Source: Tannockella kyphosi
Lineage (GTDB): Bacteria > Bacillota_I > Bacilli_A > Erysipelotrichales > Coprobacillaceae
Direction of reading: 5' to 3'
DNA: 32,000 nt
Assembly (NCBI RefSeq): GCF_021054785.1
Contig: NZ_CP088239.1
Location: 210,001-242,000 of the forward strand
The position numbers and the translations under genes are program-made. Under the pieces are notes generated by a model. That model was not told where the DNA came from, did not search any database, and was given only the letters and a program-made list of their open reading frames with translations. Positions 319 through 27,564 of the stretch are shown in pieces (positions within the stretch are counted from its first letter, which is position 1; each line of letters begins with the position of its first letter).

Positions 319-2505
319 ATGTATATTATATCAGTTTTAATCGAACATCCAGTTCAATCATTAGATATGACTTTTGATTACTTATCTGATTATGTTATCG
401 GGTTACATCATCGTGTTTCTATTATGTTTCATCATCAAAAGATTATTGGTTATGTGATGGATGTCCAGTATACAAATAAAACAAGAGAAGAACTAGAACT
501 TGAAAATGGTTTTCATTATCAAATGATTTTAGATGTATTAGATGATATGCCAGTGCTAAATGAAGAACTACGTAGTTTATCTATTACCTTATCAAAACTA
601 TCATTAGCCACTAGAATGGCATGTATTCAGGCGATGTTACCAAGTCAATTAAAACCTAAAAAAGGGAAACATACTGGAATTCAATATGAACGTATTGTTA
701 TTGGAAATCTAGGTTTTGCTTTAAAAACAACAAAACAACAAGAAGCATATCAATATATCCTAGATCATCCAAGTAGTCTAATAAAAAATATTCCGTATAG
801 TAAAGCATTATTAGATAATATGGTAAAACAAGGAGCTATTGAATATCATCAAATAGAAAAATATCGCATACCACAAAATACAGCATTTATAAAAAAAGTT
901 CATACTTTGTCTAAAGAACAACAGTATATTGTAGAAGATATAAGTAAAAAAGATACTTATGGTGTTAATCTTTTACATGGAGTAACAGGTGCTGGTAAGA
1001 GTGAAGTATATGTTCAAATAGCTAAAAATATTGTAAAAAAAGGAAAAACAGTGATTGTATTAGTGCCAGAAATAGCACTAACACCGATGATGATTGCTTT
1101 ATTTAAGAGTCATTTTGATCAAAATGTTGCAATATTACACTCTAAATTATCTAGTGGAGAAAGGTATGATGAATATCGTCGTATTCAAAACAAAGAAGTA
1201 TCGATTGTAGTAGGGGCTAGAAGTGCTATTTTTGCTCCTTTAGAAAATATTGGACTTATTGTAATGGATGAAGAGCATGATAGCAGTTATAAACAAACAA
1301 CGACTCCTCGTTATCACTGTTTAGAAATAGCAAAAATACGTGCCAAGACACATCAATGTCCTATCTTACTAGCAAGTGCCACACCATCCTTAGAATCTTA
1401 TTATCGAGCATTGGAAGGATTTTATGATTTATACACATTAGAAAACAGAATCAACCAACAACCTCTACCACCAATAGAATTTGTTTCCATGGAAAAAGAA
1501 ATGCGAGATGGCAATTATAGTTTACTATCTAGAAAATTAGTTAACCAATTACAAGCTTGCATTGATTCAGGGAATCAAGCAATCTTATTATTAAACCAGA
1601 GAGGTTACGCAAATCATATTCGTTGCTTAGATTGCAATACAGTTGTAAAGTGTCCACATTGTGATATTAGCTTAACCTATCATCACGATACCAAACAATT
1701 ACATTGTCATTATTGTGACTATCGTCAACCTTATACAAACACTTGTCCAACTTGTCAATCTAGCAATATGAAGTTAGTTGGAACGGGAACTCAAAAAATG
1801 GAAGAAATACTAGCACAAGAATTAGAAAATGCAACAATTATTCGTTATGACTATGATTCTACAAGAAACAAACAAGGACATCAAAAATTATTAGATCGAT
1901 TTAAAAACAAAGAAGCAAATATTTTATTAGGGACACAAATGATTGCCAAAGGATTAGATTTTCCAGATGTAACACTAGTAGGTGTTATTAATGCGGATAT
2001 TAGTTTGCATATTCCTGATTTTCGTAGCAATGAAAGAACATTCCAATTACTATCACAAGTTGCTGGACGAACTGGAAGAGCAGATAAACCAGGAACAGTA
2101 ACGATTCAAACCTATAACGAAAAACATCCTGTCTTAGTGAATGTAAAAAATCATAATTATATTCGATTTTATCAAGAAGAAATGAAGTATCGTAAACTAG
2201 CAATGTATCCACCATATCGTTATTTACTAAGTATTCTAATTGAAGGAAAACAAGAAGAACAAGTAGAATTATATGGTCAATATATAAAAAAATACTTAGT
2301 AAAAGAATTACCAAATCAAGTTATTTTAGGTCCTACTAGTGGGACTATCTCAAAGATAAATAATTATTATCGTCGTCGTATTCTTATTAAATATCGTTCT
2401 TTAAAAGAAATATATGAAGTGATTCGTACTATGCATCGATATTATAATAAAAAAGAAACAAAGATTCGTGTTATATGTGACTTTGATCCATATAATCAAT
2501 TATAA
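319..2505 (+). CDS. priA: primosomal protein N' (replication restart helicase PriA)
   Basis: Carries Walker A GVTGAGKSEVY, a DEEH box (VMDEEHD) and the Cys-rich zinc insert CLDCNTVVKCPHCDISLTYH..LHCHYCDY..CPTC. Length is 728 aa. Confidence 0.95.
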   Translation: MYIISVLIEHPVQSLDMTFDYLSDYVIGLHHRVSIMFHHQKIIGYVMDVQYTNKTREELELENGFHYQMILDVLDDMPVLNEELRSLSITLSKLSLATRMACIQAMLPSQLKPKKGKHTGIQYERIVIGNLGFALKTTKQQEAYQYILDHPSSLIKNIPYSKALLDNMVKQGAIEYHQIEKYRIPQNTAFIKKVHTLSKEQQYIVEDISKKDTYGVNLLHGVTGAGKSEVYVQIAKNIVKKGKTVIVLVPEIALTPMMIALFKSHFDQNVAILHSKLSSGERYDEYRRIQNKEVSIVVGARSAIFAPLENIGLIVMDEEHDSSYKQTTTPRYHCLEIAKIRAKTHQCPILLASATPSLESYYRALEGFYDLYTLENRINQQPLPPIEFVSMEKEMRDGNYSLLSRKLVNQLQACIDSGNQAILLLNQRGYANHIRCLDCNTVVKCPHCDISLTYHHDTKQLHCHYCDYRQPYTNTCPTCQSSNMKLVGTGTQKMEEILAQELENATIIRYDYDSTRNKQGHQKLLDRFKNKEANILLGTQMIAKGLDFPDVTLVGVINADISLHIPDFRSNERTFQLLSQVAGRTGRADKPGTVTIQTYNEKHPVLVNVKNHNYIRFYQEEMKYRKLAMYPPYRYLLSILIEGKQEEQVELYGQYIKKYLVKELPNQVILGPTSGTISKINNYYRRRILIKYRSLKEIYEVIRTMHRYYNKKETKIRVICDFDPYNQL

Positions 2506-14669: not shown

Positions 14670-15359
14670 ATGAGGATACTAGTTTGTGAAGATGAAGAGA
14701 ACTTAAACAGATTAATAAGTAAAAAATTAAAATTAGAAGGATATGCTGTAGATAGTTGTTTTAACGGAGAAGAGGGACTTTATTATGTAGAGCAAACAAT
14801 CTATGATTTAGTTATTTTAGATGTGATGATGCCTATTATGGATGGACATCAATTATTAGATGCAATGCGTAAAGCAGGAATAGAATATCCGGTATTGTTT
14901 CTAACAGCAAAAGATTCGAATGAAGATATTGTGGAAGGCTTGGATTTGGGTGCAAATGACTATGTAATAAAACCTTTTACTTTTGATGTTCTACTTGCAA
15001 GAGTGAGAATGTTACTTAGAACAAGACCAAGAGGAAGTGCTACTATTTTATCTATTTATGACATGAAAATAGATATCTCAAAAAGAGAAGTGAGAAGAAA
15101 TAATGAAATTATTGTTTTAAGTGCAAAGGAATATGCGATTGTAGAATATTTGGCATATAATAAGGATGTTGTGGTAACAAAGGAACAAATAGAAGAGAAC
15201 ATATGGGACTACGATAGTGAAATAGGAACTGGATTAGTGAAAGTATATATTAGTTATTTACGTAAAAAACTTGATGATCCTTATGAAAGGAAGTTAATAC
15301 ATACAGTTAGAGGAATAGGATATGTATTACGCAGTGAAAACAATGAGTCTAAAGATTAA
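14670..15359 (+). CDS. OmpR-family response regulator
   Basis: Receiver motifs DLVILDVMMPIMDG, LTAKD and KPF are present. The winged-helix C-terminus ends ...TVRGIGYVL. A strong SD (AAAGGAGG) lies upstream. Confidence 0.92.
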   Translation: MRILVCEDEENLNRLISKKLKLEGYAVDSCFNGEEGLYYVEQTIYDLVILDVMMPIMDGHQLLDAMRKAGIEYPVLFLTAKDSNEDIVEGLDLGANDYVIKPFTFDVLLARVRMLLRTRPRGSATILSIYDMKIDISKREVRRNNEIIVLSAKEYAIVEYLAYNKDVVVTKEQIEENIWDYDSEIGTGLVKVYISYLRKKLDDPYERKLIHTVRGIGYVLRSENNESKD

Positions 15360-16653
15360 ATTATCTATCTATAATGCACTACTAATGTCTATGATGGTTG
15401 TTATTGTAATAGCGTTCTTAATTATGATTAGTGGAAATGTTGTAGTAAGTAGTTCCCAAAATACATTAACAGAAGCAGTGGAAGAAGTAGCAGATGAAGT
15501 AGAATATGAAAAAGGTAAAATTGAAATAGATGATGATGTTTATTATAGTGATCAAGTTTCTATTTTGATATATAGTAGTCAAGGTGTCTTGTTAGAAGGA
15601 GTAAATAATCATAATATTGATGAATCACTAAGCAATGGACAAATTGGAACAATAACAATAGATGGTAATGAGTATATGTATTATGATGTCTTTGTTGGTG
15701 ATGAAAATTTATTTGTTCGTGGGATTGTTTCTACAAGTGCTATTACGGGAGTGCTAGATGAAGTATTTCGAATAGCGATTATTATGTTACCTACATTTAT
15801 TGCTATTTCATTTGCCGGAAGTTATTTCTTATGTAAAAGATCATTTAAACCTTTGGATAATGTGATTGAAACAGCAGAAAAAATAAGCAAAGAAGATGAT
15901 TTAACATTAAGGATTCATCCTGAAAACAAAAAAGATGAAATAACAAGACTTGCTATTACATTTGATAAAATGATGGAAAAGTTAGAGAACATGATGAAAG
16001 TAGAAAAACAATTTACATCCGATGTATCCCATGAATTGAGAACACCTGTCTCTATTATTCTTGCAGAATGTGAAATAGCAAAGAATGGCACACAAGAAGA
16101 ATTAAATCAATCTGTGCAAGGAATAGAAAAACAAACTATCAAGATTAAAAATTTAATTAATCAATTATTAAATCTTGTAAGATTAGAAAATGGCATTCAT
16201 AAACTAGAACTTGAAACAGTAGATCTAAGTGAATTAATAGAATTAATATGTAATGAACAAAGAAAAGTATTACCATCATCAATCACCATAGAAGATGATA
16301 TTCAAGAAGGTATTACTTATTTATTAGACTATACGATGATTTCTAGAGTAATCGTAAATCTAATTAATAATAGTATAAAATATATTGGACAAGGCAGTAC
16401 AATAAAAGTGAGTCTTGCCCAAACACAAGAAACAATTCATATTACGGTAGCAGATGATGGGATAGGGATTCCTGCTTCTGGAATAGAAAATATATTTACT
16501 AGATTTTATCAAGTAGATAAAGCAAGAAATGGTGATAGCATGGGATTAGGTTTATCGATGGTGAAACAGTTAGTAGAATTACATGGTGGCCAAATTGGTG
16601 TAACAAGTGAGTTAGACAAAGGAAGCACATTTGTAATCACATTAAAAAAATAG
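15322..16653 (+). CDS. sensor histidine kinase (two TM segments, HAMP-like linker, HisKA + HATPase_c)
   Basis: Has the H-box SHELRTP, N-box NLINNSIKY, G1 DDGIGI and G2 GLGLSMV. The start at 15322 has a GAGGA SD 7 nt upstream, and an alternative ATG lies at 15343. Either start overlaps the response regulator gene. Confidence 0.9.
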   Translation: MYYAVKTMSLKIKLSIYNALLMSMMVVIVIAFLIMISGNVVVSSSQNTLTEAVEEVADEVEYEKGKIEIDDDVYYSDQVSILIYSSQGVLLEGVNNHNIDESLSNGQIGTITIDGNEYMYYDVFVGDENLFVRGIVSTSAITGVLDEVFRIAIIMLPTFIAISFAGSYFLCKRSFKPLDNVIETAEKISKEDDLTLRIHPENKKDEITRLAITFDKMMEKLENMMKVEKQFTSDVSHELRTPVSIILAECEIAKNGTQEELNQSVQGIEKQTIKIKNLINQLLNLVRLENGIHKLELETVDLSELIELICNEQRKVLPSSITIEDDIQEGITYLLDYTMISRVIVNLINNSIKYIGQGSTIKVSLAQTQETIHITVADDGIGIPASGIENIFTRFYQVDKARNGDSMGLGLSMVKQLVELHGGQIGVTSELDKGSTFVITLKK

Positions 16654-16663
16654 GAGAGAAAAA

Positions 16664-17743
16664 ATGAAAAAGAAAATAGTAGTAGCATTAGTAATGCTAG
16701 CAGTAGTAATAGTGGGACGAACGATTAGTTATGCATTAGAAGTATCAAAAACGAATAATGATGTTGTAGAAATAGTAGAAGATACAGTAATTGCAACAAA
16801 TGATTCTTATATTGGAGAAGATGCAGCAAGCACAGTAGCATTTGAGCATGCAGGTGTTGAAGAAAGTGCAGTAACAAATTTAGTAGTTACTTTTGATTTC
16901 GATGATGGAGTAGCAGAATATGAAGTAGATTTCAATGTTGATACAACAGAATATGATTATGAAATTAATGCACTAACAGGAGCTGTTATTGGATATGATA
17001 AAGATGTTGAAAAAACACAAAGCACTACTTCTAGTAGTACATCAACAAGTTATATTGGAGAAACAAAAGCAAAAGCTGCTGCTTTCACTCATGCAAATAT
17101 AAATGAAAGTGATGCCTCTAATGTAGTAGTTACTTTTGATTTCGATGATGGAGTAGCAGAATATGAAGTAGATTTCAATGTCGCTACAACAGAATATGAT
17201 TATGAAATTAATGCACTAACAGGAGCTGTTATTGGATATGATAAAGATGTTGAAAAAACACAAAGCACTACTTCTAGTAGTACATCAACAAGTTATATTG
17301 GAGAAACAAAAGCAAAAGCTGCTGCTTTCACTCATGCAAATATAAATGAAAGTGATGCCTCTAATGTAGTAGTTACTTTTGATTTCGATGATGGAGTAGC
17401 AGAATATGAAGTAGATTTCAATGTCGATACAACAGAATATGATTATGAAATTAATGCACTAACAGGAGCTGTTATTGGATATGATAAAGATGTTGAAAAA
17501 ACACAAAGCACTACTTCTAGTAGTACATCAACAAGTTATATTGGAGAAACAAAAGCAAAAGCTGCCGCTTTCACTCATGCAAATATAAATGAAAGTGATG
17601 CCTCTAATGTAGTAGTTACTTTTGATTTCGATGATGGAGTAGCAGAATATGAAGTAGATTTCAATGTCGATACAACAGAATATGATTATGAAATTAATGC
17701 ACTAACAGGAGCTATTTATGAATTTAGTGTGGAAAGAGATTAA
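16664..17743 (+). CDS. secreted/membrane-anchored protein with four tandem PepSY-like modules
   Basis: An N-terminal hydrophobic signal/anchor (KKKIVVALVMLAVVIVG) is followed by four repeats of an ~81-aa unit. The unit reads ...A.AFTHA.I.ESD..NVVVTFDFDDGVAEYEVDFNV.TTEYDYEINALTGAV... and units are joined by Ser/Thr-rich linkers. Confidence 0.85.
   Translation: MKKKIVVALVMLAVVIVGRTISYALEVSKTNNDVVEIVEDTVIATNDSYIGEDAASTVAFEHAGVEESAVTNLVVTFDFDDGVAEYEVDFNVDTTEYDYEINALTGAVIGYDKDVEKTQSTTSSSTSTSYIGETKAKAAAFTHANINESDASNVVVTFDFDDGVAEYEVDFNVATTEYDYEINALTGAVIGYDKDVEKTQSTTSSSTSTSYIGETKAKAAAFTHANINESDASNVVVTFDFDDGVAEYEVDFNVDTTEYDYEINALTGAVIGYDKDVEKTQSTTSSSTSTSYIGETKAKAAAFTHANINESDASNVVVTFDFDDGVAEYEVDFNVDTTEYDYEINALTGAIYEFSVERD
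16805..17740 (+). repeat. 243-bp tandem repeat, ~3.9 copies, within the PepSY gene
   Basis: Unit starts lie at 16805, 17048, 17291 and 17534, an exact 243-nt period. Units 2-4 differ only by isolated substitutions (e.g. gtcgctaca vs gtcgataca, gctgctgct vs gctgccgct). Unit 1 diverges in its first ~75 nt. Confidence 0.95.
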
Positions 17744-17867: not shown

Positions 17868-18560
17868 TTAAACTAAAGGATTGTTTTTTTGTTGATTCAT
17901 TGCAACAATGAAGTGAAGTGTTAAATAAGCAATTTCATCATCACTAAATACAGTATCATATTTTTCTTTAACAATAGGATTTAATAATGCAGCATATTTA
18001 AATTCTTCTGGATGACGTTCTTTGATTTTTTCAACTAATGGATTATCTAATTGTTGATTGTTTTTTAAACGATAAATAGCTTGTTGTAAATGTAATCCTA
18101 CAGTAGTTACAATTTTATCGCTAGATTCAATTTTAAAACCATAAGTTTTATCAATGTCTTCTAAAACCTTTAATAAGATATTCACTACTTCATCTTCTAA
18201 AAAGTCAAAGCTAGGAATCATATCTACATCTAATAAATTATTATTTGAAAAATACATAGTAATTAAATCAATTTCATTTTCAGGAAAACTAACTCCATAT
18301 ACTTCTTCTATTTTATGACAAATAGTAGCAGCTAAATTATGAAATTCATTGTTTTTAAAAACACTTAATTGACTACTGCTTAGTTCAATATAATTTTTAG
18401 CTTGTAATCTTATAATTGCAATTGATAAGTGTGTAGCAATATTTTGAATATTAGAGTCTAATAAGTCTATATGTAATGCGTTGATTTCTGTTTTAATTAA
18501 ATTTAAAATATCATCTCTTGTTTGTGCAAATGATTCATTTGTTAGTTGTATGCTCATCAT
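17868..18560 (-). CDS. stand-alone PRD-domain protein (two PRDs, BglG/LicT-like, no CAT RNA-binding domain)
   Basis: PRD1 reads IATHLSIAIIRL ... VSFPENEIDLITMYF. PRD2 reads VGLHLQQAIYRL ... DDEIAYLTLHFIVAM. The track start at 18578 is TTG. The tandem ATGs at 18560/18557 sit just after GGGGGAGG, so one of them is the likelier start. Confidence 0.8.
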   Translation of the reverse strand: MMSIQLTNESFAQTRDDILNLIKTEINALHIDLLDSNIQNIATHLSIAIIRLQAKNYIELSSSQLSVFKNNEFHNLAATICHKIEEVYGVSFPENEIDLITMYFSNNNLLDVDMIPSFDFLEDEVVNILLKVLEDIDKTYGFKIESSDKIVTTVGLHLQQAIYRLKNNQQLDNPLVEKIKERHPEEFKYAALLNPIVKEKYDTVFSDDEIAYLTLHFIVAMNQQKNNPLV

Positions 18561-18645
18561 TTCCTCCCCCGTTTTCAATTATTTTTTAAGTCATGTAATA
18601 TAATATATTATATGCCCAAAAAAAGCTATAAAAATTTAATTAATT

Positions 18646-18674
18646 TTGATAAAGCATATAGGTGGAAATATAAA
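18646..18674 (+). promoter_or_regulatory. candidate sigma-A promoter (distal) upstream of pflB
   Basis: TTGATA, a 17-nt spacer, then TATAAA. Confidence 0.35.
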
Positions 18675-18738
18675 AAAGAAATTGGTATATTATTAGGGTG
18701 TTATAGCAAAAAAACTTTGAAATTTAAGTATAATTCCA

Positions 18739-18767
18739 TTGTTTGCTAAGATAGTAAGTGCTATAAT
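18739..18767 (+). promoter_or_regulatory. candidate sigma-A promoter (proximal, extended -10) upstream of pflB
   Basis: TTGTTT, a 17-nt spacer, then TATAAT preceded by TGC (TGn extended -10). It lies ~37 nt upstream of the pflB ATG. Confidence 0.5.
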
Positions 18768-18803
18768 GATTGAGGAATTTAAATAAAACAGGAGGATCGT
18801 AAC

Positions 18804-20855
18804 ATGAATTTAGAAAAAGAATGGAACGGCTTTGTTGAAGGTAAATGGGTAAAAGAAATTAATTTAAGAGAATTTATCCAATTAAACTATACTCCATACA
18901 ATGGAGATGACACTTTCTTAGCTGGACCAACAAAAGCAACTCTTGATCTTTGGGATCAAGTAATGGATTTAACAAAGAAAGAAATTGAAGCTGGTGGCGT
19001 ATTAGATATGGACACTAAAGTAGTTTCTTCATTAACATCACATGCTGCAGGGTATTTAAACAAAGAAATTGAAACAATTGTAGGTTTCCAAACAGATAAG
19101 CCTTTCAAAAGATCATTACAACCAAACGGTGGTATCCGTATGGCTGAAAAAGCTTGTGCTGATAATGGATATACTGTAGATCCTGAAATCGTGGAAATTT
19201 TCACGAAATATAGAAAAACTCACAATGCAGGAGTATTTGATGCTTATACACCAGATATGCGTGCTTGTCGTTCATCTCACATTATTACTGGATTACCAGA
19301 TGCTTATGGGCGTGGACGTATTATCGGAGACTATCGTCGTGTAGCTTTATACGGGGTAGATTTCTTAATCAAAGATAAAAAACATCAATTAGATACATCT
19401 CATGTACGTATGAATGCAGAAAATATTCGTACTAGAGAAGAATTATCTGAACAAATTCGTGCTTTAGGTGAATTAAAACAAATGGGTGCAATTTATGGTT
19501 TTGATATTTCTAGACCTGCAAAAGATGTAAAAGAAGCAATCCAATGGACATACTTCGGTTACTTAGCTGCAGTTAAAGAACAAAATGGTGCTGCAATGTC
19601 TTTAGGTAGAACTTCTACATTTATCGACATCTTCGCACAAAGAGATATCGCTAATGGTGTATATACAGAACAAGAAGTACAAGAAATGGTTGACCATTTC
19701 ATTATGAAATTACGTTTAGTAAAATTCGCTCGTACTCCAGAATACAACGAATTATTCTCAGGAGATCCAACTTGGGTAACTGAAACAATCGGTGGTGTTG
19801 GTGTAGATGGACGTCATTTAGTTACTAAAACTAGTTTCAGATATTTACATACATTAACAAACTTAGGAACTGCTCCTGAGCCAAATATGACAGTATTATG
19901 GTCTACTAACTTACCAGCAGAATTCAAAAGATATTGTGCAAAAATGTCAATTCAAACTTCATCAATTCAATATGAAAATGATGATTTAATGCGTGTAACT
20001 CATGGTGATGATTATGCAATCGCATGTTGTGTATCTTCAATGAGAATTGGTAAAGAAATGCAATTCTTTGGAGCTCGTGCTAACTTAGCAAAATGTTTAT
20101 TATACGCTATCAATGGTGGTATAGATGAAAAATCTGGAAAACAAGTAGGACCTAGATTCAGAGCTGTTGAAGATGGTGTATTAGATTATGAAGATGTAAA
20201 ACAAAAATTCGTAGATATGATGTCATGGTTAGCTGGTGTTTATGTAAACTCATTAAACATTATCCATTATATGCATGATAAATATTGTTATGAAAGAATC
20301 CAAATGGCTTTACATGATCGTGAAGTAAAACGTTATTTCGCAACAGGTATTGCTGGTTTATCAGTAGTAGCAGATTCACTGTCAGCTATTAAATATGCAC
20401 AAGTAACTCCAGTAAGAAATGAAGCTGGTATTGTTGTGGATTACAATATTGAAGGAGATTTCCCTAAATATGGTAATGATGATGATAGAGTAGATGAAAT
20501 TGCTAACTGGTTAGTTTCAACTTTCATGGATTTAGTTCGTTCTCATCATACTTATAGAGATGGTGTACCAACTACTTCAATCTTAACAATTACTTCTAAT
20601 GTAGTTTATGGTAAAGCAACTGGTAATACTCCTGATGGACGTAAATCTGGTCAACCATTTGCACCAGGTGCAAACCCATTACATGGTAGAGATACAAACG
20701 GTGCTGTTGCTTCATTAGCATCTGTAGCAAAATTACCTTTCTCTGATGCCCAAGATGGTATCTCAAATACATTCTCAATCATTCCTGGAGCTTTAGGAAA
20801 AGATGATCAAGTATTTGCAGGTGATTTAGAAGTTGAATTAGATTTAAATAAATAA
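18804..20855 (+). CDS. pflB: pyruvate formate-lyase catalytic body lacking the C-terminal glycyl-radical domain
   Basis: PFL-like from the N-terminus ([36 protein letters not shown]) through the Cys-Cys site IACCVS to [12 protein letters not shown]. It then ends in an acidic tail [15 protein letters not shown] and TAA. It has no RVSGY motif. An SD (AGGAGG) lies upstream. Confidence 0.9.
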
Positions 20856-20857
20856 AG

Positions 20858-21064
20858 ATGGAAACTTCAGATAAAGATATTGACGCTCTAATAGCAATGT
20901 TAGATGGTCAAATGAAAAAAGGATCAAAACATGTAAATATTGCTGTAGAAGATCCTACAAATATGAATGCTTCTATCACTCAAGTTAAAGCTGGTATAGA
21001 TTGTGACAGTGGTGACACTGCATGTAAAATACCTAACTTAATGACGGGTTTAGATCAAGAATAA
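20858..21064 (+). CDS. 68-aa degenerate paralogue of the glycyl-radical domain (function unknown, could be a decaying duplicate)
   Basis: The ATG lies 2 nt after the pflB stop and has no SD. The N-terminal half ([22 protein letters not shown]) parallels the next ORF ([22 protein letters not shown]), including a 16-nt identical DNA stretch. The C-terminal half is diverged. Confidence 0.5.
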
Positions 21065-21077
21065 AGGAGATAATTCT

Positions 21078-21320
21078 ATGAGTTCAAATAGACAACAAGA
21101 AGAAAATCTAGTAGCAATGTTAGATGGATATGTAGAAAAAGGTGGACATCACTTAAATGTTAATGTTTTTACAAAAGAAACATTAATAGATGCGCAAGCT
21201 CACCCAGAAAACTATCCACAATTAACTGTACGTGTATCTGGATATGCTGTTAACTTTGTTAAATTAACAAAAGAACAACAAGATGACGTAATTTCTAGAA
21301 CTTTCCACAGTCAAATGTAA
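21078..21320 (+). CDS. autonomous glycyl-radical domain protein (GrcA/YfiD-like, equivalent to the PFL C-terminus)
   Basis: Contains ...GGHHLNVNV...[39 protein letters not shown], the canonical PFL C-terminus with the RVSGY radical signature. It has its own SD (AAGGAGA, 21064-21070) 7 nt before the ATG, and a terminator follows. Confidence 0.88.
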
Positions 21321-21325
21321 TAATG

Positions 21326-21352
21326 AAAAACGGATGAAAATCCGTTTTTTTT
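21326..21352 (+). terminator. rho-independent terminator after the glycyl-radical minigene
   Basis: Stem aaaaacgga / tccgttttt with loop tgaaaa, followed by a T-run. Confidence 0.8.
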
Positions 21353-21367
21353 ATTTTCTTTTTCTTG

Positions 21368-21396
21368 TTGATTGTTTTCGTGAAGAGGCGTATCAT
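21368..21396 (+). promoter_or_regulatory. candidate promoter of the ABC transporter pair
   Basis: TTGATT, a 17-nt spacer, then TATCAT. An SD (AAGGGAG) lies 7-8 nt before the ATG at 21418. Confidence 0.4.
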
Positions 21397-21417
21397 TGAT
21401 GGTAAGGGAGTGATTGG

Positions 21418-22740
21418 ATGTTTCATTTTATTTATCAATGTATGTTAGGACAAAAGAAATTATATATCATTATGCTTGTTGTTTTGACATTACTTGCAAC
21501 AATTGAATTGTATTTTGCAGGGATATATACTGCTTTTATGGGATTAAGTGGATCAAGTGCCTATATTATCCGAACACTTGCTACTTTTATATCTTTTTTA
21601 TCCTGTTTTTTAACTTTGTTTATTAATCAGTTTTTCTTAGAAGGAAAAACGGAAGAATTATCTATTTTTATGATTACTGGTGGATCTGCTAAAAAAAGTT
21701 TATCTTATATTATTATTCAGTTTGGTATATTTTATGTAGTTGCTACTTTATTAGCGATACCATTAGGTGCTCTTGCATTATCTATGACAATTAATTTAGT
21801 TGCAATACAATTAGATACGATTATTCATATTTCATTATTATCTTTATTATCTATCTTTGGTAGTTTTGTTATTATGAAGTTAATATTTGTTTTATTATTA
21901 AATGTTAGTTTTTTAAATCGTGTAGCGATTTCAATTTATAAATATATGACTAGTACAGGTAAACCATCCGAACAGTCAAATGATTTCTTTTCTCAGTTAC
22001 CAAGAACAGGAAAGGCAAAGTTTCCAGTAGGATCATTTTTTATTGTAGCAATGACTATTGTTTTGTTTTTTGTAGGAATAAAAGGATTAGTTTCTTTTGA
22101 AGAAGATATGAGTTCTTTGTTATTTTCGATTGTAGTATTACTGGTATCTTTTTTATTAGTCATTAATACTTGGATTCCATTATCTTTTAATCTATTTCAT
22201 GATCGTTATTTAATGAAAAAGCCTTTTTTGTTATTTAGCCTTTGTTATATTAAACAAACTATGAAAACGATGAGTGCAATGATTAATATGAATGCGATAT
22301 TTATACCAATGACATTATGTTTATTTGTACTACCAGTATTTGATGGGAGTTATACTATCTTTTTAATGATTTGTTACATTGCTTTAATGTTGATGTTGTT
22401 TTTAGGATTTTTTATCCGTTTTCATGTTTATTTACCTACAAAATCAAGAGATATTGCAACAATGAGAGCATTAGGATATAAAGATATATTTATTATTCGT
22501 ATTCAAAAAGTAGAAGTATTTACTTTTGTGTTTTTAACTTTTATATTACCTTTTCTATGTTTTAGTTATGTATTAGGGCAAGGTTATTTACAAGGATTTA
22601 TATCTTTGGGGGTTATCGGAGTAGTTTTAATAATTTATGTTTTCTTTTATGGAATGTTTAGTATCTATATTTATTGGTGTTATCAAAAACAAGCAAAGGA
22701 GGTATTAGGTGATGTCAGATATCTTAATCGAAGTGAGTAA
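21418..22740 (+). CDS. ABC transporter permease with two FtsX-type modules (about 10 predicted TM segments, no large extracellular domain)
   Basis: Highly hydrophobic. Two FtsX-like cytoplasmic loop signatures are present: EGKTEELSIFMITGGSAKKSLSYII and KSRDIATMRALGYKDIFIIRIQ. Confidence 0.8.
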   Translation: MFHFIYQCMLGQKKLYIIMLVVLTLLATIELYFAGIYTAFMGLSGSSAYIIRTLATFISFLSCFLTLFINQFFLEGKTEELSIFMITGGSAKKSLSYIIIQFGIFYVVATLLAIPLGALALSMTINLVAIQLDTIIHISLLSLLSIFGSFVIMKLIFVLLLNVSFLNRVAISIYKYMTSTGKPSEQSNDFFSQLPRTGKAKFPVGSFFIVAMTIVLFFVGIKGLVSFEEDMSSLLFSIVVLLVSFLLVINTWIPLSFNLFHDRYLMKKPFLLFSLCYIKQTMKTMSAMINMNAIFIPMTLCLFVLPVFDGSYTIFLMICYIALMLMLFLGFFIRFHVYLPTKSRDIATMRALGYKDIFIIRIQKVEVFTFVFLTFILPFLCFSYVLGQGYLQGFISLGVIGVVLIIYVFFYGMFSIYIYWCYQKQAKEVLGDVRYLNRSE

Positions 22741-23977
22741 TGTTTCTAAAATATATGATCAGGATATTCTCTTGAAGAGAGGAACTAATTTTTATGCTTT
22801 AAATAATGTAAATTTTGTTTTAGAAAGAGGAGATTTTATAGCAATTATGGGACCAAGTGGTTCTGGTAAATCAACATTATTGAACTGTATGTCTTCTTTG
22901 GATGCAATTACGAAAGGTACTATTGAATTAAAAGGAAAGAATTTAGGAGCTTATAGTAACCAAGAATTAAGTGATTTTAGATATCACGATTTAGGTTTTA
23001 TTTTTCAAAACCATAATTTAATATCAACACTTAGTATTTTTGATAATATTGCTTCCACACTATATTTAGGTGGACAAGATTCAAAAGATATTTATAAAAG
23101 AGTATTAGAAATAGCAGAGCAATTAGATATTATGGAAATTCTAAAAAAGAAACCAAATGAATGCTCTGGTGGACAACGTCAAAGAGCTGCTATTGCAAGA
23201 GGGTTAATTAATAATCCAGATATATTAATATGTGATGAACCAACAGGAAATTTAGATTCTAAAAATTCTCATGAATTTTTAAAACTATTAACTGATTTAA
23301 ATGAAAAAGGAACTTCTATTGTTTTAGTAACTCATGATAGTATGATTGCTAGTTATGCTAAGAAGTTAGTTTATTTAAGAGATGGGCAAGTTCATCATAT
23401 TGTAGAGAGAAAAGATAGTAGTCAAGATGTATTCTTTCAACAAATAAACTCAATTACAAATAAAGATAGTTTGGTTCATCTTTTTGGTAAAAGCGAAGAA
23501 GTAGAATTGAGATCAGATTTAGTAACGGATGTTTCTGTACATGGAGAAGGTAGTCGTTATGATGTTTATGCTATTTTTAATGAAAATCCAGAAGAGTTAG
23601 AGAAAATGAAGTTTCAACCATGTTTACAATGTAATCATGAGGTTTTTGAATATGTTCGTACAGGAGAAAAGATATATGTAAAAGATATCAAAAAAGTAGA
23701 ACTATTTATGATTAGTAAATTGGTAATGATGATGATTGCAGAATATCATTTCTATGTTTTAGTAAAAATACATACAGAGAGTACGGTATATGATTATCGT
23801 TTCTTAAATGAAAATAATTTAACAGAATTTTTCCAAATATTATTAGATAATAATATTGAAATAGATGATCCAATGGAATTGATTGATTTATTTAAAAAGA
23901 ATAGTGGAGATTTTAGGAGACTTCGTTATTTACAATCTAAAAGAAAAGTGTTTGTAGATACATATGGAATGAAATAG
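22709..23977 (+). CDS. ABC transporter ATP-binding protein (MacB/LolD/BceA-type) with a ~190-aa C-terminal extension of unknown function
   Basis: Has Walker A GPSGSGKST, the Q-loop, signature SGGQRQR, Walker B ILICDEPT and the H-loop VTHD. A GTG at 22709 or ATG at 22712 follows AGGAGG. It overlaps the permease gene by ~30 nt. Confidence 0.88.
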   Translation: MMSDILIEVSNVSKIYDQDILLKRGTNFYALNNVNFVLERGDFIAIMGPSGSGKSTLLNCMSSLDAITKGTIELKGKNLGAYSNQELSDFRYHDLGFIFQNHNLISTLSIFDNIASTLYLGGQDSKDIYKRVLEIAEQLDIMEILKKKPNECSGGQRQRAAIARGLINNPDILICDEPTGNLDSKNSHEFLKLLTDLNEKGTSIVLVTHDSMIASYAKKLVYLRDGQVHHIVERKDSSQDVFFQQINSITNKDSLVHLFGKSEEVELRSDLVTDVSVHGEGSRYDVYAIFNENPEELEKMKFQPCLQCNHEVFEYVRTGEKIYVKDIKKVELFMISKLVMMMIAEYHFYVLVKIHTESTVYDYRFLNENNLTEFFQILLDNNIEIDDPMELIDLFKKNSGDFRRLRYLQSKRKVFVDTYGMK

Positions 23978-24047: not shown

Positions 24048-24782
24048 ATGGAAGGATATATTCATTCATTAGAGTCATGTGGAACAGTAGATGGACCAGG
24101 GTTGCGTTTTGTGGTTTTTTTACAAGGATGTCCATTGCGTTGTAAATATTGTCATAATCCAGATACATGGAAACCAAATGTTGGTAACAAAATGAGTGTT
24201 AGTGATATTTTAAAGAAATATAATAAAAAGAGTAGTTTTTATAAAAATGGAGGAATTACTGTTACTGGTGGTGAACCATTGATGCAAATGGAATTTGTTA
24301 CGGAGTTATTTAAAGCTTGTAAAAATGAAGGAATTCATACTTGTTTAGATACTTCAGGTGTAACTTTTACTCCGGGTAAAACAGAAAAGTTTGATTTATT
24401 AATGATGTATACTGATTTAGTGATGCTAGATATTAAACATATTGATAATGTAGAACATAAGGAATTAACAGGATTGGATAATGGGAATATTTTATCATTT
24501 GCTAAATATTTAGATAAAAAGAATATTTCTGTTTGGATTCGTCATGTTGTTGTACCAACGATTACACAAAATGATAAGTATTTAAAACAATTAGGTAATT
24601 TTATAGGAACATTACATAATATCAAAGCATTAGATGTGTTACCTTATCATGTGATGGGAAGATCGAAATATCAAGAAATGGGGCTAACCTATCCTTTAGA
24701 AGGAATTGAACCCTTAGATAAAGAAGATGCAATTAAAGCAAGAACTATCATTCTTGAAGGAATGAGAGAAGTAAGAAAATAA
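24048..24782 (+). CDS. pflA: pyruvate formate-lyase activating enzyme (radical SAM)
   Basis: Starts with GYIHS.ES.GTVDGPG and carries the cluster motif CPLRCKYCHNPD and GGITVTGGEP. Length is 244 aa. Confidence 0.93.
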   Translation: MEGYIHSLESCGTVDGPGLRFVVFLQGCPLRCKYCHNPDTWKPNVGNKMSVSDILKKYNKKSSFYKNGGITVTGGEPLMQMEFVTELFKACKNEGIHTCLDTSGVTFTPGKTEKFDLLMMYTDLVMLDIKHIDNVEHKELTGLDNGNILSFAKYLDKKNISVWIRHVVVPTITQNDKYLKQLGNFIGTLHNIKALDVLPYHVMGRSKYQEMGLTYPLEGIEPLDKEDAIKARTIILEGMREVRK

Positions 24783-24808
24783 CTTATCCAATAGGGTAAG
24801 TTTTTTTT
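24781..24808 (+). terminator. rho-independent terminator after pflA
   Basis: Stem cttatcc / gggtaag with loop aata, followed by TTTTTTTT. Confidence 0.75.
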
Positions 24809-24818
24809 AATGCATATT

Positions 24819-24849
24819 CTTTGTTTAAAAAAACAAAGTATGTTAGTAT
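24819..24849 (+). promoter_or_regulatory. candidate ahpC promoter overlapped by a 20-bp perfect palindrome (possible operator)
   Basis: The palindrome CTTTGTTTAAAAAAACAAAG spans 24819-24838. TTGTTT (24821-24826), a 17-nt spacer, then TAGTAT (24844-24849). Confidence 0.4.
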
Positions 24850-24914
24850 ATAAATGTCAAGTTAGCTCATACTAACTAAGAACAAAAAAATAGAAAACAG
24901 GAGGAATATATAGT

Positions 24915-25478
24915 ATGTCACTTATTCAAAAAGAAGTAGTAGATTTTAAAGTACAAGCGTTTGTAAATAACGAGTTTCAAGAGGTAACAAAAGCAGATAC
25001 ATTAGGGAAATGGGCTGTTTATTTCTTTTATCCAGCGGATTTTACATTTGTTTGTCCAACTGAATTAGAAGATTTAGCAAATAAATATGAAGAGTTTACA
25101 GCAATTGATTGCGAGGTTTATAGCGTTTCTTGCGATAGTCATTTTGTGCATAAAGCATGGCATGATGCATCGAAAACAATTAAAAAAATCAAATATCCAA
25201 TGTTAGCAGACCCAACAGGTGTTTTAGCTAGAGGATTTGATGTAATGATCGAATCAGATGGTATGGCAGAAAGAGGAAGCTTTATCGTTAACCCTGAAGG
25301 GAAAATCGTAGCTTATGAAGTATTAGCAGGAAATGTAGGACGTAATGCCGATGAATTATTCAGACGTGTACAAGCGTTACAATTTGTAGCAGAACATGGT
25401 GATGAAGTATGTCCTGCAAAATGGAAACCAGGGGAAGAAACTTTAAAACCTAGTTTAGATTTAGTGGGATTACTTTAA
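24915..25478 (+). CDS. ahpC: alkyl hydroperoxide reductase subunit C (typical 2-Cys peroxiredoxin)
   Basis: The peroxidatic Cys lies in FTFVCPTE and the resolving Cys in EVCPAKW. Length is 187 aa, with a strong SD. Confidence 0.95.
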   Translation: MSLIQKEVVDFKVQAFVNNEFQEVTKADTLGKWAVYFFYPADFTFVCPTELEDLANKYEEFTAIDCEVYSVSCDSHFVHKAWHDASKTIKKIKYPMLADPTGVLARGFDVMIESDGMAERGSFIVNPEGKIVAYEVLAGNVGRNADELFRRVQALQFVAEHGDEVCPAKWKPGEETLKPSLDLVGLL

Positions 25479-25480
25479 TA

Positions 25481-25524
25481 AAACAAGACTCTTATCAAAA
25501 TATTCTGATAAGAGTTTGTTTTTT
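25481..25524 (+). terminator. rho-independent terminator (or attenuating hairpin) after ahpC
   Basis: A long stem (caagactcttatca / tgataagagtttg, one bulge) is followed by TTTTTT. Confidence 0.8.
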
Positions 25525-25545
25525 AAAAGAAAGAAGGAGAAAAAT

Positions 25546-25986
25546 ATGAACGAACAATTACATAATGATTTAAATAAGTACTTAGCAGATACAGCAGTAT
25601 TATATATAAAATTCCATAATTTACATTGGAATGTTGTAGGGAAACAATTTAAAAATATTCATGAATACTTAGAAACTATTTATGATGGATTTGCAGATGT
25701 GTTGGATGAAGTAGCTGAAAACATTAAAATGAATGGGCAAACTCCACTAGCATCAATGAAAGATTATTTAGCGGTAAGCACAGTAAAAGAATTAGATAAT
25801 ATTGAAATTTCGGCTTCTGAAACATTAAATATTGCCAAACAAGATATTGCTTCTATTAAAGCTTTTGGGGAAGCAATTCGTAAAACTGCAGGTAATGAAG
25901 ATTGCTATGATGTGGTTAGTATGATGGAAGGGCATTTAACTAATTATAATAAGACTTTATGGTTCTTAGAGGCAATGACAAAATAA
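25546..25986 (+). CDS. dps: Dps-family DNA-protection/ferritin-like protein
   Basis: Ferroxidase-site residues occur in FHNLHWNVVG...IHEYLE...DEVAE. The start is set at the ATG at 25546, 6 nt after AAGGAGA. The track's TTG at 25516 lies inside the ahpC terminator. Confidence 0.9.
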   Translation: MNEQLHNDLNKYLADTAVLYIKFHNLHWNVVGKQFKNIHEYLETIYDGFADVLDEVAENIKMNGQTPLASMKDYLAVSTVKELDNIEISASETLNIAKQDIASIKAFGEAIRKTAGNEDCYDVVSMMEGHLTNYNKTLWFLEAMTK

Positions 25987-27564
25987 ATGGAAAAGATATA
26001 TGATATGATTATTATTGGAGCGGGACCAGCAGGTCTTTCAGCTGCAATATATGGTGCAAGAGCTAAATATAAGGTATTAGTTTTAGAAAAAGAAAAAATT
26101 GGTGGTCAAATTACGATTACTCATGAAGTCGTAAACTATCCAGGTATTATGGAAACTAGTGGTGAAGAATTAACACAAGGTATGTTAAAACAAGCACAAA
26201 GATTTGGTGCAGAATTTAAGATTAGTGAAGTGGTAGATATTATTGATGAAGGTGACTTCAAAATACTAAAAACAACTACTGGTGACTATAAAACACTAGG
26301 TGTTATTCTAGCACCAGGGGCAAATCCTAGAGTACTAGGATTTGAAGGAGAAAAGAAATTCCAAGGTAGAGGAGTAGCTTATTGTGCTACTTGTGATGGA
26401 GAATTCTTTAAGGATAAAGAAGTTTATGTAGTAGGTGGTGGTTTTGCGGCAGTAGAAGAAGGGATTTTCCTTACTAAATATGCATCAAAAGTACATATGA
26501 TAGTTCGTGAAGAAAACTTTACATGTGCAAAAACAGTTTATGAAAAAGTAGCTTTAGAGCCTAAAATTGAAACTTATTTCCAAACAGAAGTTCAATCAGT
26601 AAATGGGGAACAAACTTTGGAAAGTATTACTTTAACAAGCGAAGGAAAACAATGGACAGTTGAACATCCAGATGGTTTTGGTGTCTTTGTGTTTGCAGGA
26701 TATGTTCCTAATACAAGTTGGTTACCAAAAAGTATTGAATTAGATAAGGGTTATATTGTTACTGATATTAATAGAAAAACAAATGTGGATGGTATTTATG
26801 GTGCTGGAGATGTTTGTATTAAGAATTTAAGACAGGTAGTAACAGCTGTTAGTGATGGAGCTTTAGCTGCTACTTCTTTAGAAAAGGTAGTCCATGATTT
26901 ACATAGTAAATTAGATTTACCTGAGTTTGTTCAAGAAGTAGTAGAACAAAAAGAAGAAGTGAAGGCTACTAGCTCAGATGCTTTTATTAGTGATCAAATA
27001 AAAACACAGTTAGCACCAATATTTGGTAAGTTTGAAAAGAAAGTTCTGATTAAAGGATATTTATCTAATGATAAATTATCTATGGAATTAGAAGGCTTTT
27101 TAGCAGAATTTGCAACGATTAGTGATAAAGTAATGATTCAAAAAGAAACATCATCTACTGGATATCTAGAGTTATGTTATGAAGATGGAAGCAGTAGTGG
27201 GATATCTTTCTATGCTGTTCCTGGAGGACATGAGTTTAATTCATTTATTGTGGCTCTTTATAATGTTGCTGGGCCAGGGAAAGATATTTCTAATGAAGAT
27301 TTAGATAAAATAGCAGCTATTCAAAAAGACACTAAAATACAAGTATTTATTTCATTGTCTTGTACGATGTGTCCAGAAGTAGTAATGGCAACAGGTACGA
27401 TTGCAGCAAAAAATCAATATGTTCAAACACAAGCTATTGATATTGCTCATTTTCCAGAATTAAAAGAAAAATACAAAATCATGTCTGTACCATGTATGGT
27501 AATTAATGAAGAAGTAGTTCATTTTGGAAAGAAAAACATATCACAAATATTAGATTTATTATAA
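25987..27564 (+). CDS. AhpF-like NAD(P)H:peroxiredoxin reductase with reversed domain order (TrxR-like module N-terminal, AhpF-NTD-like thioredoxin folds C-terminal)
   Basis: The N-terminus has GAGPAGLSAA (FAD), the redox motif CATCDG, GGGFAAVEEG (NAD(P)H) and GAGDV. The C-terminus reads ISLSCTMCPEVV...MSVPCMVIN, resembling the AhpF N-terminal domain SLSCHNCPDVV...GVPAVF. Confidence 0.85.
   Translation: MEKIYDMIIIGAGPAGLSAAIYGARAKYKVLVLEKEKIGGQITITHEVVNYPGIMETSGEELTQGMLKQAQRFGAEFKISEVVDIIDEGDFKILKTTTGDYKTLGVILAPGANPRVLGFEGEKKFQGRGVAYCATCDGEFFKDKEVYVVGGGFAAVEEGIFLTKYASKVHMIVREENFTCAKTVYEKVALEPKIETYFQTEVQSVNGEQTLESITLTSEGKQWTVEHPDGFGVFVFAGYVPNTSWLPKSIELDKGYIVTDINRKTNVDGIYGAGDVCIKNLRQVVTAVSDGALAATSLEKVVHDLHSKLDLPEFVQEVVEQKEEVKATSSDAFISDQIKTQLAPIFGKFEKKVLIKGYLSNDKLSMELEGFLAEFATISDKVMIQKETSSTGYLELCYEDGSSSGISFYAVPGGHEFNSFIVALYNVAGPGKDISNEDLDKIAAIQKDTKIQVFISLSCTMCPEVVMATGTIAAKNQYVQTQAIDIAHFPELKEKYKIMSVPCMVINEEVVHFGKKNISQILDLL

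Follow-up and report, generated by a model that had tools for sequence, protein, structure and literature searches.

A pyruvate formate-lyase of Tannockella kyphosi that is probably composed of separately encoded subunits, with the glycyl-radical domain on a free-standing small protein

Pyruvate formate-lyase (PFL), the founding member of the glycyl radical enzymes, performs a central step of anaerobic carbon metabolism. In textbooks and reviews it is a single chain. In the window analyzed here, a 32,000-nucleotide stretch of the Tannockella kyphosi genome (contig NZ_CP088239.1, positions 210,001 to 242,000), the parts of this chain are distributed over three consecutive genes (Table 1), and the question is whether the locus contains a broken PFL gene or encodes an enzyme that is assembled from several subunits by nature. 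A preliminary description of the locus, made from the sequence alone, had proposed a PFL that is natively split into two pieces, a large body and a small radical module. The native split is supported by the comparison of related loci described below, but the pieces number three in T. kyphosi rather than two. Most probably, the locus is a single operon for a multi-subunit PFL, in which the genes of the catalytic body, a middle subunit and the radical module GrcA3 are followed by a terminator.

The first gene encodes the catalytic body. Its product scores above the cut-off of the PFL equivalog TIGR01255 (1111.8 versus 994.2 bits) along profile positions 2-668 of 744, matches the Pfam family PFL-like with an E value of 1.7e-218 and contains the adjacent active-site cysteines of PFL (C418/C419 in E. 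coli). The Pfam family Gly_radical is represented by its first half only (positions 1-51 of 106), and no RVSGY motif occurs in the 683-residue open reading frame (ORF). The body thus lacks the radical glycine that a PFL has on the same chain; RVSGY is carried by a separate protein of 80 residues. An AlphaFold2 (AF2) model of the body, with a predicted local distance difference test score (pLDDT) of 86.7, superimposes on E. coli PFL (PDB 2pfl) with a template modeling (TM) score of 0.96 when normalized to the query but of 0.87 when normalized to the target, a difference that indicates one missing domain. PDB 4pkf and 2y8n, which represent multi-subunit glycyl radical enzymes (see below), are also among the fold matches of the model. 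Canonical E. coli PflB (PDB 2PFL/1H16) is 62% identical to the body and shares with it the fold, the Cys-Cys site and PflA as the activase. It differs in that Gly734 resides on the same chain and in that 'GKDDEVRKTNLAGLMDGY' takes the place of the acidic tail, Cys motif, stop codon and new start that occur in the split family. The tail of the body had been called acidic and non-homologous. It is acidic, but it is not without homologs, since the motif F-x-G-D/E-L/I-acidic is found in all 70 split bodies of the related loci, 40 of 40 in the two-piece and 30 of 30 in the three-piece arrangement (see below).

The module that is missing from the body is encoded by the third gene. As the preliminary description had correctly stated along with the absence of RVSGY from the body, it is an ORF of its own with a Shine-Dalgarno (SD) sequence, and a hairpin follows it. 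The 80-residue product matches the NCBIfam family NF038360 (GrcA3) with 161.4 bits, above the cut-off of 158, whereas the scores for GrcA (TIGR04365, 94.4 versus a cut-off of 170) and GrcA2 (NF008341, 108.1 versus 145) remain below. It covers positions 664-744 of the 744 positions of TIGR01255 and 50-106 of the 106 positions of Gly_radical, so that the body and GrcA3 tile both profiles (2-668 plus 664-744 and 1-51 plus 50-106, respectively). In alignments GrcA3 pairs with residues 681-758 of E. coli PFL and with residues 68-125 of YfiD. It corresponds to PFL residues ~681-759, a region in which helix 1 and strand beta10 are followed by the RVSGY loop and the C-terminal helix; only ~6 residues of GrcA3 precede the helix-1 equivalent. 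The GGHH sequence of GrcA3 was considered as a split-specific partner of the Cys motif, an idea that was dropped because canonical fused PFLs have GAHHLNVNV.

The 222 nucleotides (nt) between the body gene and grcA3 had been treated as a spacer and the ORF within them had been left uninterpreted. They contain a conserved gene for a protein of 68 residues, ORF2. A search with this single sequence found only three homologs, which led to the view of ORF2 as a lineage-specific insertion; this view was overturned by direct reading of 80 related loci and then by a profile search. The profile, made from an alignment of 28 middle proteins, matched at least 522 proteins, all of which are unnamed or designated hypothetical and none of which has a Pfam domain. 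In the alignment, C56 and P59 are invariant, D16, G22, H25, N27 and A55 are near-invariant, and a second Cys is usual. Comparison of this alignment with that of GrcA3 by hhalign placed residues 2-34 on residues 2-34 with a probability of 95.4% and an E value of 2e-8, and the NCBIfam GrcA3 model itself matches ORF2 at positions 2-29 (E 1.3e-4). By these profile comparisons, the N-terminal half of ORF2 is homologous to helix 1 and strand beta10 of the radical domain. The C-terminus of ORF2 matches the ends of the bodies of two-piece loci, e.g., ...EDCKDLACNIPNIEDSIDNE. For ORF2, neither a Pfam match nor a PDB sequence match better than E 0.15 was obtained; a match of its Cys motif to BMP2 (ACCVPTE, E 0.15) is weak and was taken as chance.

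The same division of PFL recurs in many bacteria. A scan for GrcA3 with one genome per species yielded at least 600 matching stretches, at least 591 of which encode relatives. The locus counts rest on the best 80 of these at least 591 relatives, and on 83 non-redundant loci when separately fetched ones are included (individual loci are denoted by L and a number). A 50%-identity representative search with the body returned mostly fragments, in which split and fused forms are not separable, and was used for the alignment and outgroups only. A free RVSGY module of ~80 residues is encoded in 79 of the best 80 loci and a fused one in 1 (L080). The split loci belong to Lachnospiraceae, Ruminococcus, Oscillospiraceae, Erysipelotrichales and Gastranaerophilales, and also to Faecalimonas. 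Forty of the 83 loci are two-piece, with a body tail of a median of 32 residues after ALGK that includes the Cys motif. Another 30 are three-piece and consist of a body with a tail of a median of 17.5 residues, a separate middle ORF (median 69 residues) and GrcA3; they are found in Ruminococcus, Lachnoclostridium, Erysipelotrichales (Beduini and this window) and other Clostridia. One locus is fused (L080), 6 contain an unlinked grcA3 with no body within 5 kb, and 6 are cut by a contig end, such that their class is not assignable. The Cys motif is present in 39 of 40 two-piece tails, in none of the 30 three-piece tails and in all 30 middle proteins; its two locations are mutually exclusive.

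In 70 loci, grcA3 is directly downstream of a body of this kind; in two-piece loci the gap is usually 3-40 nt, and pflA is often the next gene. Thus, [Clostridium] hylemonae has a 704-residue body, 20 nt, an 80-residue GrcA3 and then PflA, and an oral Erysipelotrichaceae bacterium has proteins of 701 and 80 residues, followed by PflA. L004 and L007 have the layout of the window, with 683, 64/65 and 79 residues. An SD-like sequence precedes 81 of 82 grcA3 genes. The ratio of nonsynonymous to synonymous substitutions (dN/dS) is 0.13-0.14 for the body and 0.10-0.15 for grcA3 when the window is compared with L004 and L007; with further relatives included, the range for grcA3 is 0.10-0.16. In a rough neighbor-joining tree all split bodies form one clade, apart from the canonical fused PFLs, and within it three-piece loci are interleaved with two-piece loci. 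The recurrence of the split, purifying selection, the SD sequences of the small genes and the usual presence of pflA in the operon uphold the earlier claim of a natively split PFL.

Single loci deviate from these arrangements. In L080 (2853-5237), from a metagenome-assembled genome (MAG) of Treponemataceae, a single frame of 794 codons joins the body to the radical domain by a Cys-containing insert (...GNCMSCDTATIM...); because it is nested inside the split clade, it may represent a secondary re-fusion. L073, an Ornithomonoglobus MAG, is split but lacks both the Cys tail and the middle gene; its body tail ends in ...GELDLDALKNS and the gap is 65 nt. In L072 the locus is split and a frameshift occurs inside the body.

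Table 1. Positions in the window of the split PFL locus, its sequence elements and the associated genes
Feature	Position	Strand	Basis or remark
Shine-Dalgarno AGGAGG of the PFL body	18790-18795	+	sequence reading, SD scan
PFL catalytic body, 683 residues	18804-20855	+	RefSeq WP_249029706.1, 'formate C-acetyltransferase'
Active-site Cys408-Cys409 codons (IACCVS)	20025-20030	+	alignment to PFL chains
Conserved acidic tail of the PFL body, in place of the link to the radical domain	20808-20852	+	motif comparison
Candidate middle subunit ORF2, 68 residues	20858-21064	+	RefSeq WP_249029707.1, 'hypothetical protein'
ORF2 residues 2-34, copy of the radical domain's first helix and beta-strand	20861-20959	+	hhalign
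ORF2 Cys motif C49-x6-A-C56-x-x-P59-N60	21002-21037	+	family alignment (28 middle proteins)
Shine-Dalgarno AAAGGAGA of grcA3	21063-21070	+	7 nt between its end and the grcA3 ATG
GrcA3, 80 residues, free-standing glycyl-radical module	21078-21320	+	RefSeq WP_283162784.1, 'autonomous glycyl radical cofactor GrcA3'
Gly55 codon, in RVSGY of GrcA3	21240-21242	+	sequence
Intrinsic-terminator-like hairpin, then T run	21325-21350	+	sole one on that strand across the three genes
ABC transporter pair between grcA3 and pflA	21418-23977		440-residue membrane protein and ATPase with ~200-residue C-terminal extension
PflA, PFL-activating radical-SAM enzyme	24048-24782	+	TIGR02493 305.8 bits, cut-off 231.75; Pfam Radical_SAM, Fer4_12

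In the model we propose, the body, which has no radical glycine, would provide the ten-stranded barrel and the Cys408-Cys409 site. PflA, encoded further downstream, would convert Gly55 of GrcA3 to the glycyl radical, and GrcA3 would sit non-covalently in the vacant slot of the body and thereby complete the barrel and the active site. Oxygen damage would be limited to the 9-kDa GrcA3, a replaceable subunit. ORF2 would be an accessory subunit that holds the Cys motif at the junction of the body and GrcA3, as a clamp or a placeholder. The rationale of a cheap, replaceable cartridge is conjectural. Some support for it comes from a second, unlinked grcA3 of T. kyphosi outside the window, the product of which (WP_283162785.1) is 89% identical to the GrcA3 of the window, and from an unlinked copy in a relative. 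In one sample of that relative, the GrcA3 proteins of a three-piece locus and of an unlinked gene are near-identical (L135:1344-1592; L134:1871-2113); the unlinked gene is located between a shikimate kinase gene and sbcCD.

Several points weigh against a multi-subunit PFL with three partners. The survey picked the loci closest to GrcA3, so that the 79 split loci do not measure how frequent split PFLs are relative to fused ones. The comparison of pflB genes spans the window and the loci that were read, and a fused pflB may exist elsewhere in the T. kyphosi genome. Truncated E. coli PFL binds YfiD weakly, and YfiD binding requires residues 696-733, with beta10 among them (PMC8683613); tight assembly in the present case is therefore an assumption. 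The other points concern ORF2. Its ATG is situated 2 nt past the stop codon of the body and is not preceded by an SD sequence. In the window comparisons its dN/dS of 0.24-0.45 is above that of both neighbor genes, and the AF2 model of ORF2 alone has a pLDDT of 60.7, with a helix at residues 5-20, strands at 26-30 and 38-42 and a disordered Cys tail.

These properties of ORF2 would fit a remnant without function, left behind by a partial duplication of the grcA3 5' end and no longer translated or needed. The higher dN/dS values, 0.37-0.45, were obtained against L004, L007 and L134, to whose orthologs ORF2 is ~50% identical as compared with 85-94% for the neighbor genes. However, the frame is open in every relative, dN/dS is 0.24 versus the closest relative (L137) and 0.07 for L004 versus L007, and the ORF2 of the window has retained D16, G22, H25, N27, C56 and P59, residues conserved in a family whose size is itself at odds with a remnant. 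The start 2 nt past the body stop, again without an SD sequence, is kept in L137, which suggests translational coupling of ORF2 to the body. A remnant is consequently unlikely, although among the alternatives it fares best. As judged from the substitution ratios, ORF2 is under purifying selection that is weaker in the lineage of the window, and the low-confidence stand-alone model suggests that ORF2 folds only with its partners.

Slightly less likely still is a second alternative, in which GrcA3 is solely a spare part for the repair of oxygen-cleaved, full-length PFL from a gene elsewhere in the genome, rather than the usual partner of the adjacent body. The curated name of NF038360, the family to which the 80-residue protein has been assigned, implies a spare cofactor. 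GrcA/YfiD of E. coli and Y06I of phage T4 are, like GrcA3, small free homologs of the PFL radical domain with RVSGY. Moreover, unlinked copies exist. In L023, L056, L066, L074, L081 and L085 (Gastranaerophilales/Melainabacteria) grcA3 is at position ~5000 without a PFL body within 5 kb, and in 4 of 4 loci tested the unlinked grcA3 is divergent beside the gene of a Crp/Fnr-family regulator (cNMP_binding and HTH_Crp_2). In E. coli, yfiD is controlled by FNR. Viral-class contigs of 10-333 kb in IMG/VR (L087-L101) carry GrcA3-like genes that stand alone and are up to 87% identical to that of the window. One of these contigs, L094, encodes a body of 685 residues directly upstream of the GrcA3-like gene (L094:1923-4231). 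A separate group of loci, L107-L133, contains YfiD-like genes for proteins of 127 residues.

Arguing against a role as a spare part only is the body itself, which has no radical glycine and yet evolves under a dN/dS of 0.13 and scores above the PFL equivalog cut-off. GrcA/YfiD is activated by PflA and acts in trans on oxygen-cleaved PFL, and GrcA3 would have both properties in common with it. An engineered E. coli PFL(1-695) together with YfiD has wild-type activity once activated (PMC8683613; review PMC13450708). YfiD partners with a full-length PFL whose radical domain has been lost to oxygen cleavage, whereas the body adjacent to GrcA3 natively has no such domain, here and in the 70 related loci in which grcA3 lies immediately 3' of it, often with pflA next. 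GrcA3 also lacks the long disordered N-terminus (residues 1-60) by which YfiD recognizes cleaved PFL (PMC8683613); unlike that of YfiD, its N-terminus corresponds to PFL residue ~681, so that helix 1 is included. In addition, and again unlike GrcA/YfiD, GrcA3 is accompanied by a third protein with a Cys motif. Because the body encoded next to it did not arise by damage to a full-length PFL, GrcA3 probably works like GrcA but as an obligatory subunit. By analogy, the three-piece set, which combines a body with a separate piece for helix 1 and beta10 and with a complete radical module, would resemble the repair complex of cleaved PFL and YfiD.

Programmed recoding by frameshift, bypass or read-through that fuses the pieces into one polypeptide is highly improbable. 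The body and grcA3 share one reading frame, and ORF2 starts 2 nt past the body stop within an A/T-rich stretch. As had been noted earlier, though, the shared frame is closed by TAA at 20889-20891 and the ORF2 frame by TAA at 20849-20851; in all, 12 stop codons occur in the shared frame between the body and grcA3. In the 21 three-piece loci that were automatically parsed, the gap between the body and the middle gene ranges from -17 to +152 nt with all three frame offsets, and an SD sequence is present ahead of 18 of 21 middle genes. The bodies of the relatives end with TAA, TAG or TGA, and most of the downstream genes have an SD sequence and an ATG of their own. The variable gaps and frames together with the SD sequences of the middle genes identify separate cistrons rather than products of recoding. 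Finally, the view of the locus as an ordinary fused pflB that is decaying into a pseudogene or has been interrupted by an assembly or indel error, to which two stop codons and a frame change in what is one chain in E. coli might point, is excluded, in line with the comparative check that the preliminary description had named, by the recurrence of the split (the same three-gene layout in independent assemblies of other species, L004, L007, L134 and L137, and 79 split loci among 80), by the single clade, by dN/dS values well below 1 in all three ORFs and by the SD sequences, and RefSeq annotates three genes and no pseudogene.

For the Cys motif of the multi-subunit PFL, the functions of a clamp, a placeholder or a redox or metal switch can be hypothesized. 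One tentative and rather doubtful proposal is that the Cys module, a free protein in the window and a body tail in two-piece loci, is a dedicated third component of a plug-in radical system. Its copy of helix 1 and beta10 would place it in or beside the empty slot, its Cys pair would respond to redox state or metal, and it would thereby control the loading, holding or swapping of activated GrcA3. Small Cys-containing subunits beside a large catalytic one, as here, are also found in benzylsuccinate synthase (BSS; alpha-beta-gamma) and 4-hydroxyphenylacetate decarboxylase (HPAD). In those enzymes the large subunit retains the radical glycine, and the small ones use four Cys to bind Fe-S clusters. 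In the split PFL it is the radical domain itself that is detached, and the middle protein, unlike BSS beta/gamma and HPAD gamma, has two to three conserved Cys. Searches of Pfam and PDB sequences detected in ORF2 neither homology to the Fe-S subunits BSS beta/gamma or HPAD gamma nor a four-Cys motif. Other cysteine arrangements occur in the family. The C-termini of Gastranaerophilales GrcA3 proteins in L021, L023, L039, L050 and L053 have an extra Cys-rich extension (...GNSCGC, ...SCGC or ...GCC), and the body tails of L031, L038, L039 and L061 contain DCGCCEGTC instead of C...AC..P(T/N). In Gastranaerophilales the cysteines on GrcA3 and on the body tail might meet.

The neighborhood of the three genes includes the activase gene, which in many relatives adjoins the split locus, often directly 3' of grcA3. 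In the window an ABC transporter pair intervenes, whose 440-residue membrane protein has no match in Pfam or NCBIfam; in relatives the grcA3-pflA interval contains other genes (Mur-ligase-like in L004 and L134), and in L137 a DDE transposase gene (908-2425, minus strand) immediately follows grcA3 where the window has the ABC transporter. Downstream of pflA on the same strand are ahpC (24915-25478), a ferritin/Dps-like gene (25516-25986) and the gene of an ahpF-like flavoprotein with a thioredoxin domain (25987-27564), the last of the pflA-linked run 24048-27564; the activase gene is thus clustered with oxidative-stress genes. Upstream of the body and divergent from it, 17868-18578 on the minus strand encodes a 236-residue protein with two PRD domains and no recognized RNA-binding domain, and L004 has a similar PRD gene at the matching position. 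Further upstream, just after a two-component system (14670-16653), a secreted-looking protein of 359 residues with four near-identical tandem repeats of ~87 residues is encoded (16664-17743). An Rfam scan of 18400-21500 revealed no RNA element.

The preliminary description had known of no described PFL with this architecture. No paper that uses the name GrcA3 or describes a truncated partner, the middle subunit or a natural split PFL was found in the literature, but the 80-residue protein has already been curated as GrcA3 at NCBI. A 2026 review of glycyl radical enzymes mentions no spare-part proteins other than those of the YfiD/GrcA type (PMC13450708). The best matches of the body among PDB sequences are two chains named 'Formate acetyltransferase', 38LA_A (687 residues, 1130 bits) and 38LB_A (739 residues, 1125 bits), as compared with 985 bits for E. 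coli PFL. 38LA, a natural or engineered truncation, ends with ...SLGKED, and 38LB continues with ...ALGKSGNVMFGECDMCEMKELDDVS..., a Cys-bearing tail; neither has a radical domain. The PDB sequences contain no GrcA3-like or ORF2-like chain, and no paper was found for 38LA/38LB, which are absent among the fold-library entries released up to 2026-04-08 and must therefore be very recent. Structural work on the split-PFL family may be under way, which tempers the novelty of the present findings. The radical-bearing subunit has thus been recognized in part, as GrcA3 in annotation; the obligate heteromer is apparently undescribed, and the middle protein is wholly unannotated.

Judging from the genomes compared, a separately encoded radical domain is the normal state of PFL in a large clade that includes Ruminococcus, Lachnospiraceae, Faecalimonas, Erysipelotrichales and Gastranaerophilales. 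If the proposal for the Cys module is true, many Firmicutes and Melainabacteria of the gut and rumen would have as their main PFL a regulated heteromer with its radical cofactor on a free 9-kDa protein. A PFL of this kind raises the questions of how the activase gains access to a glycine loop that is buried in the enzyme, whether a subunit is exchanged to cope with oxygen damage and which function the Cys motif has at the junction. Such organisms may be misjudged by automated annotation and by metabolic models if these demand a full-length PflB or treat GrcA3 as no more than a repair factor.

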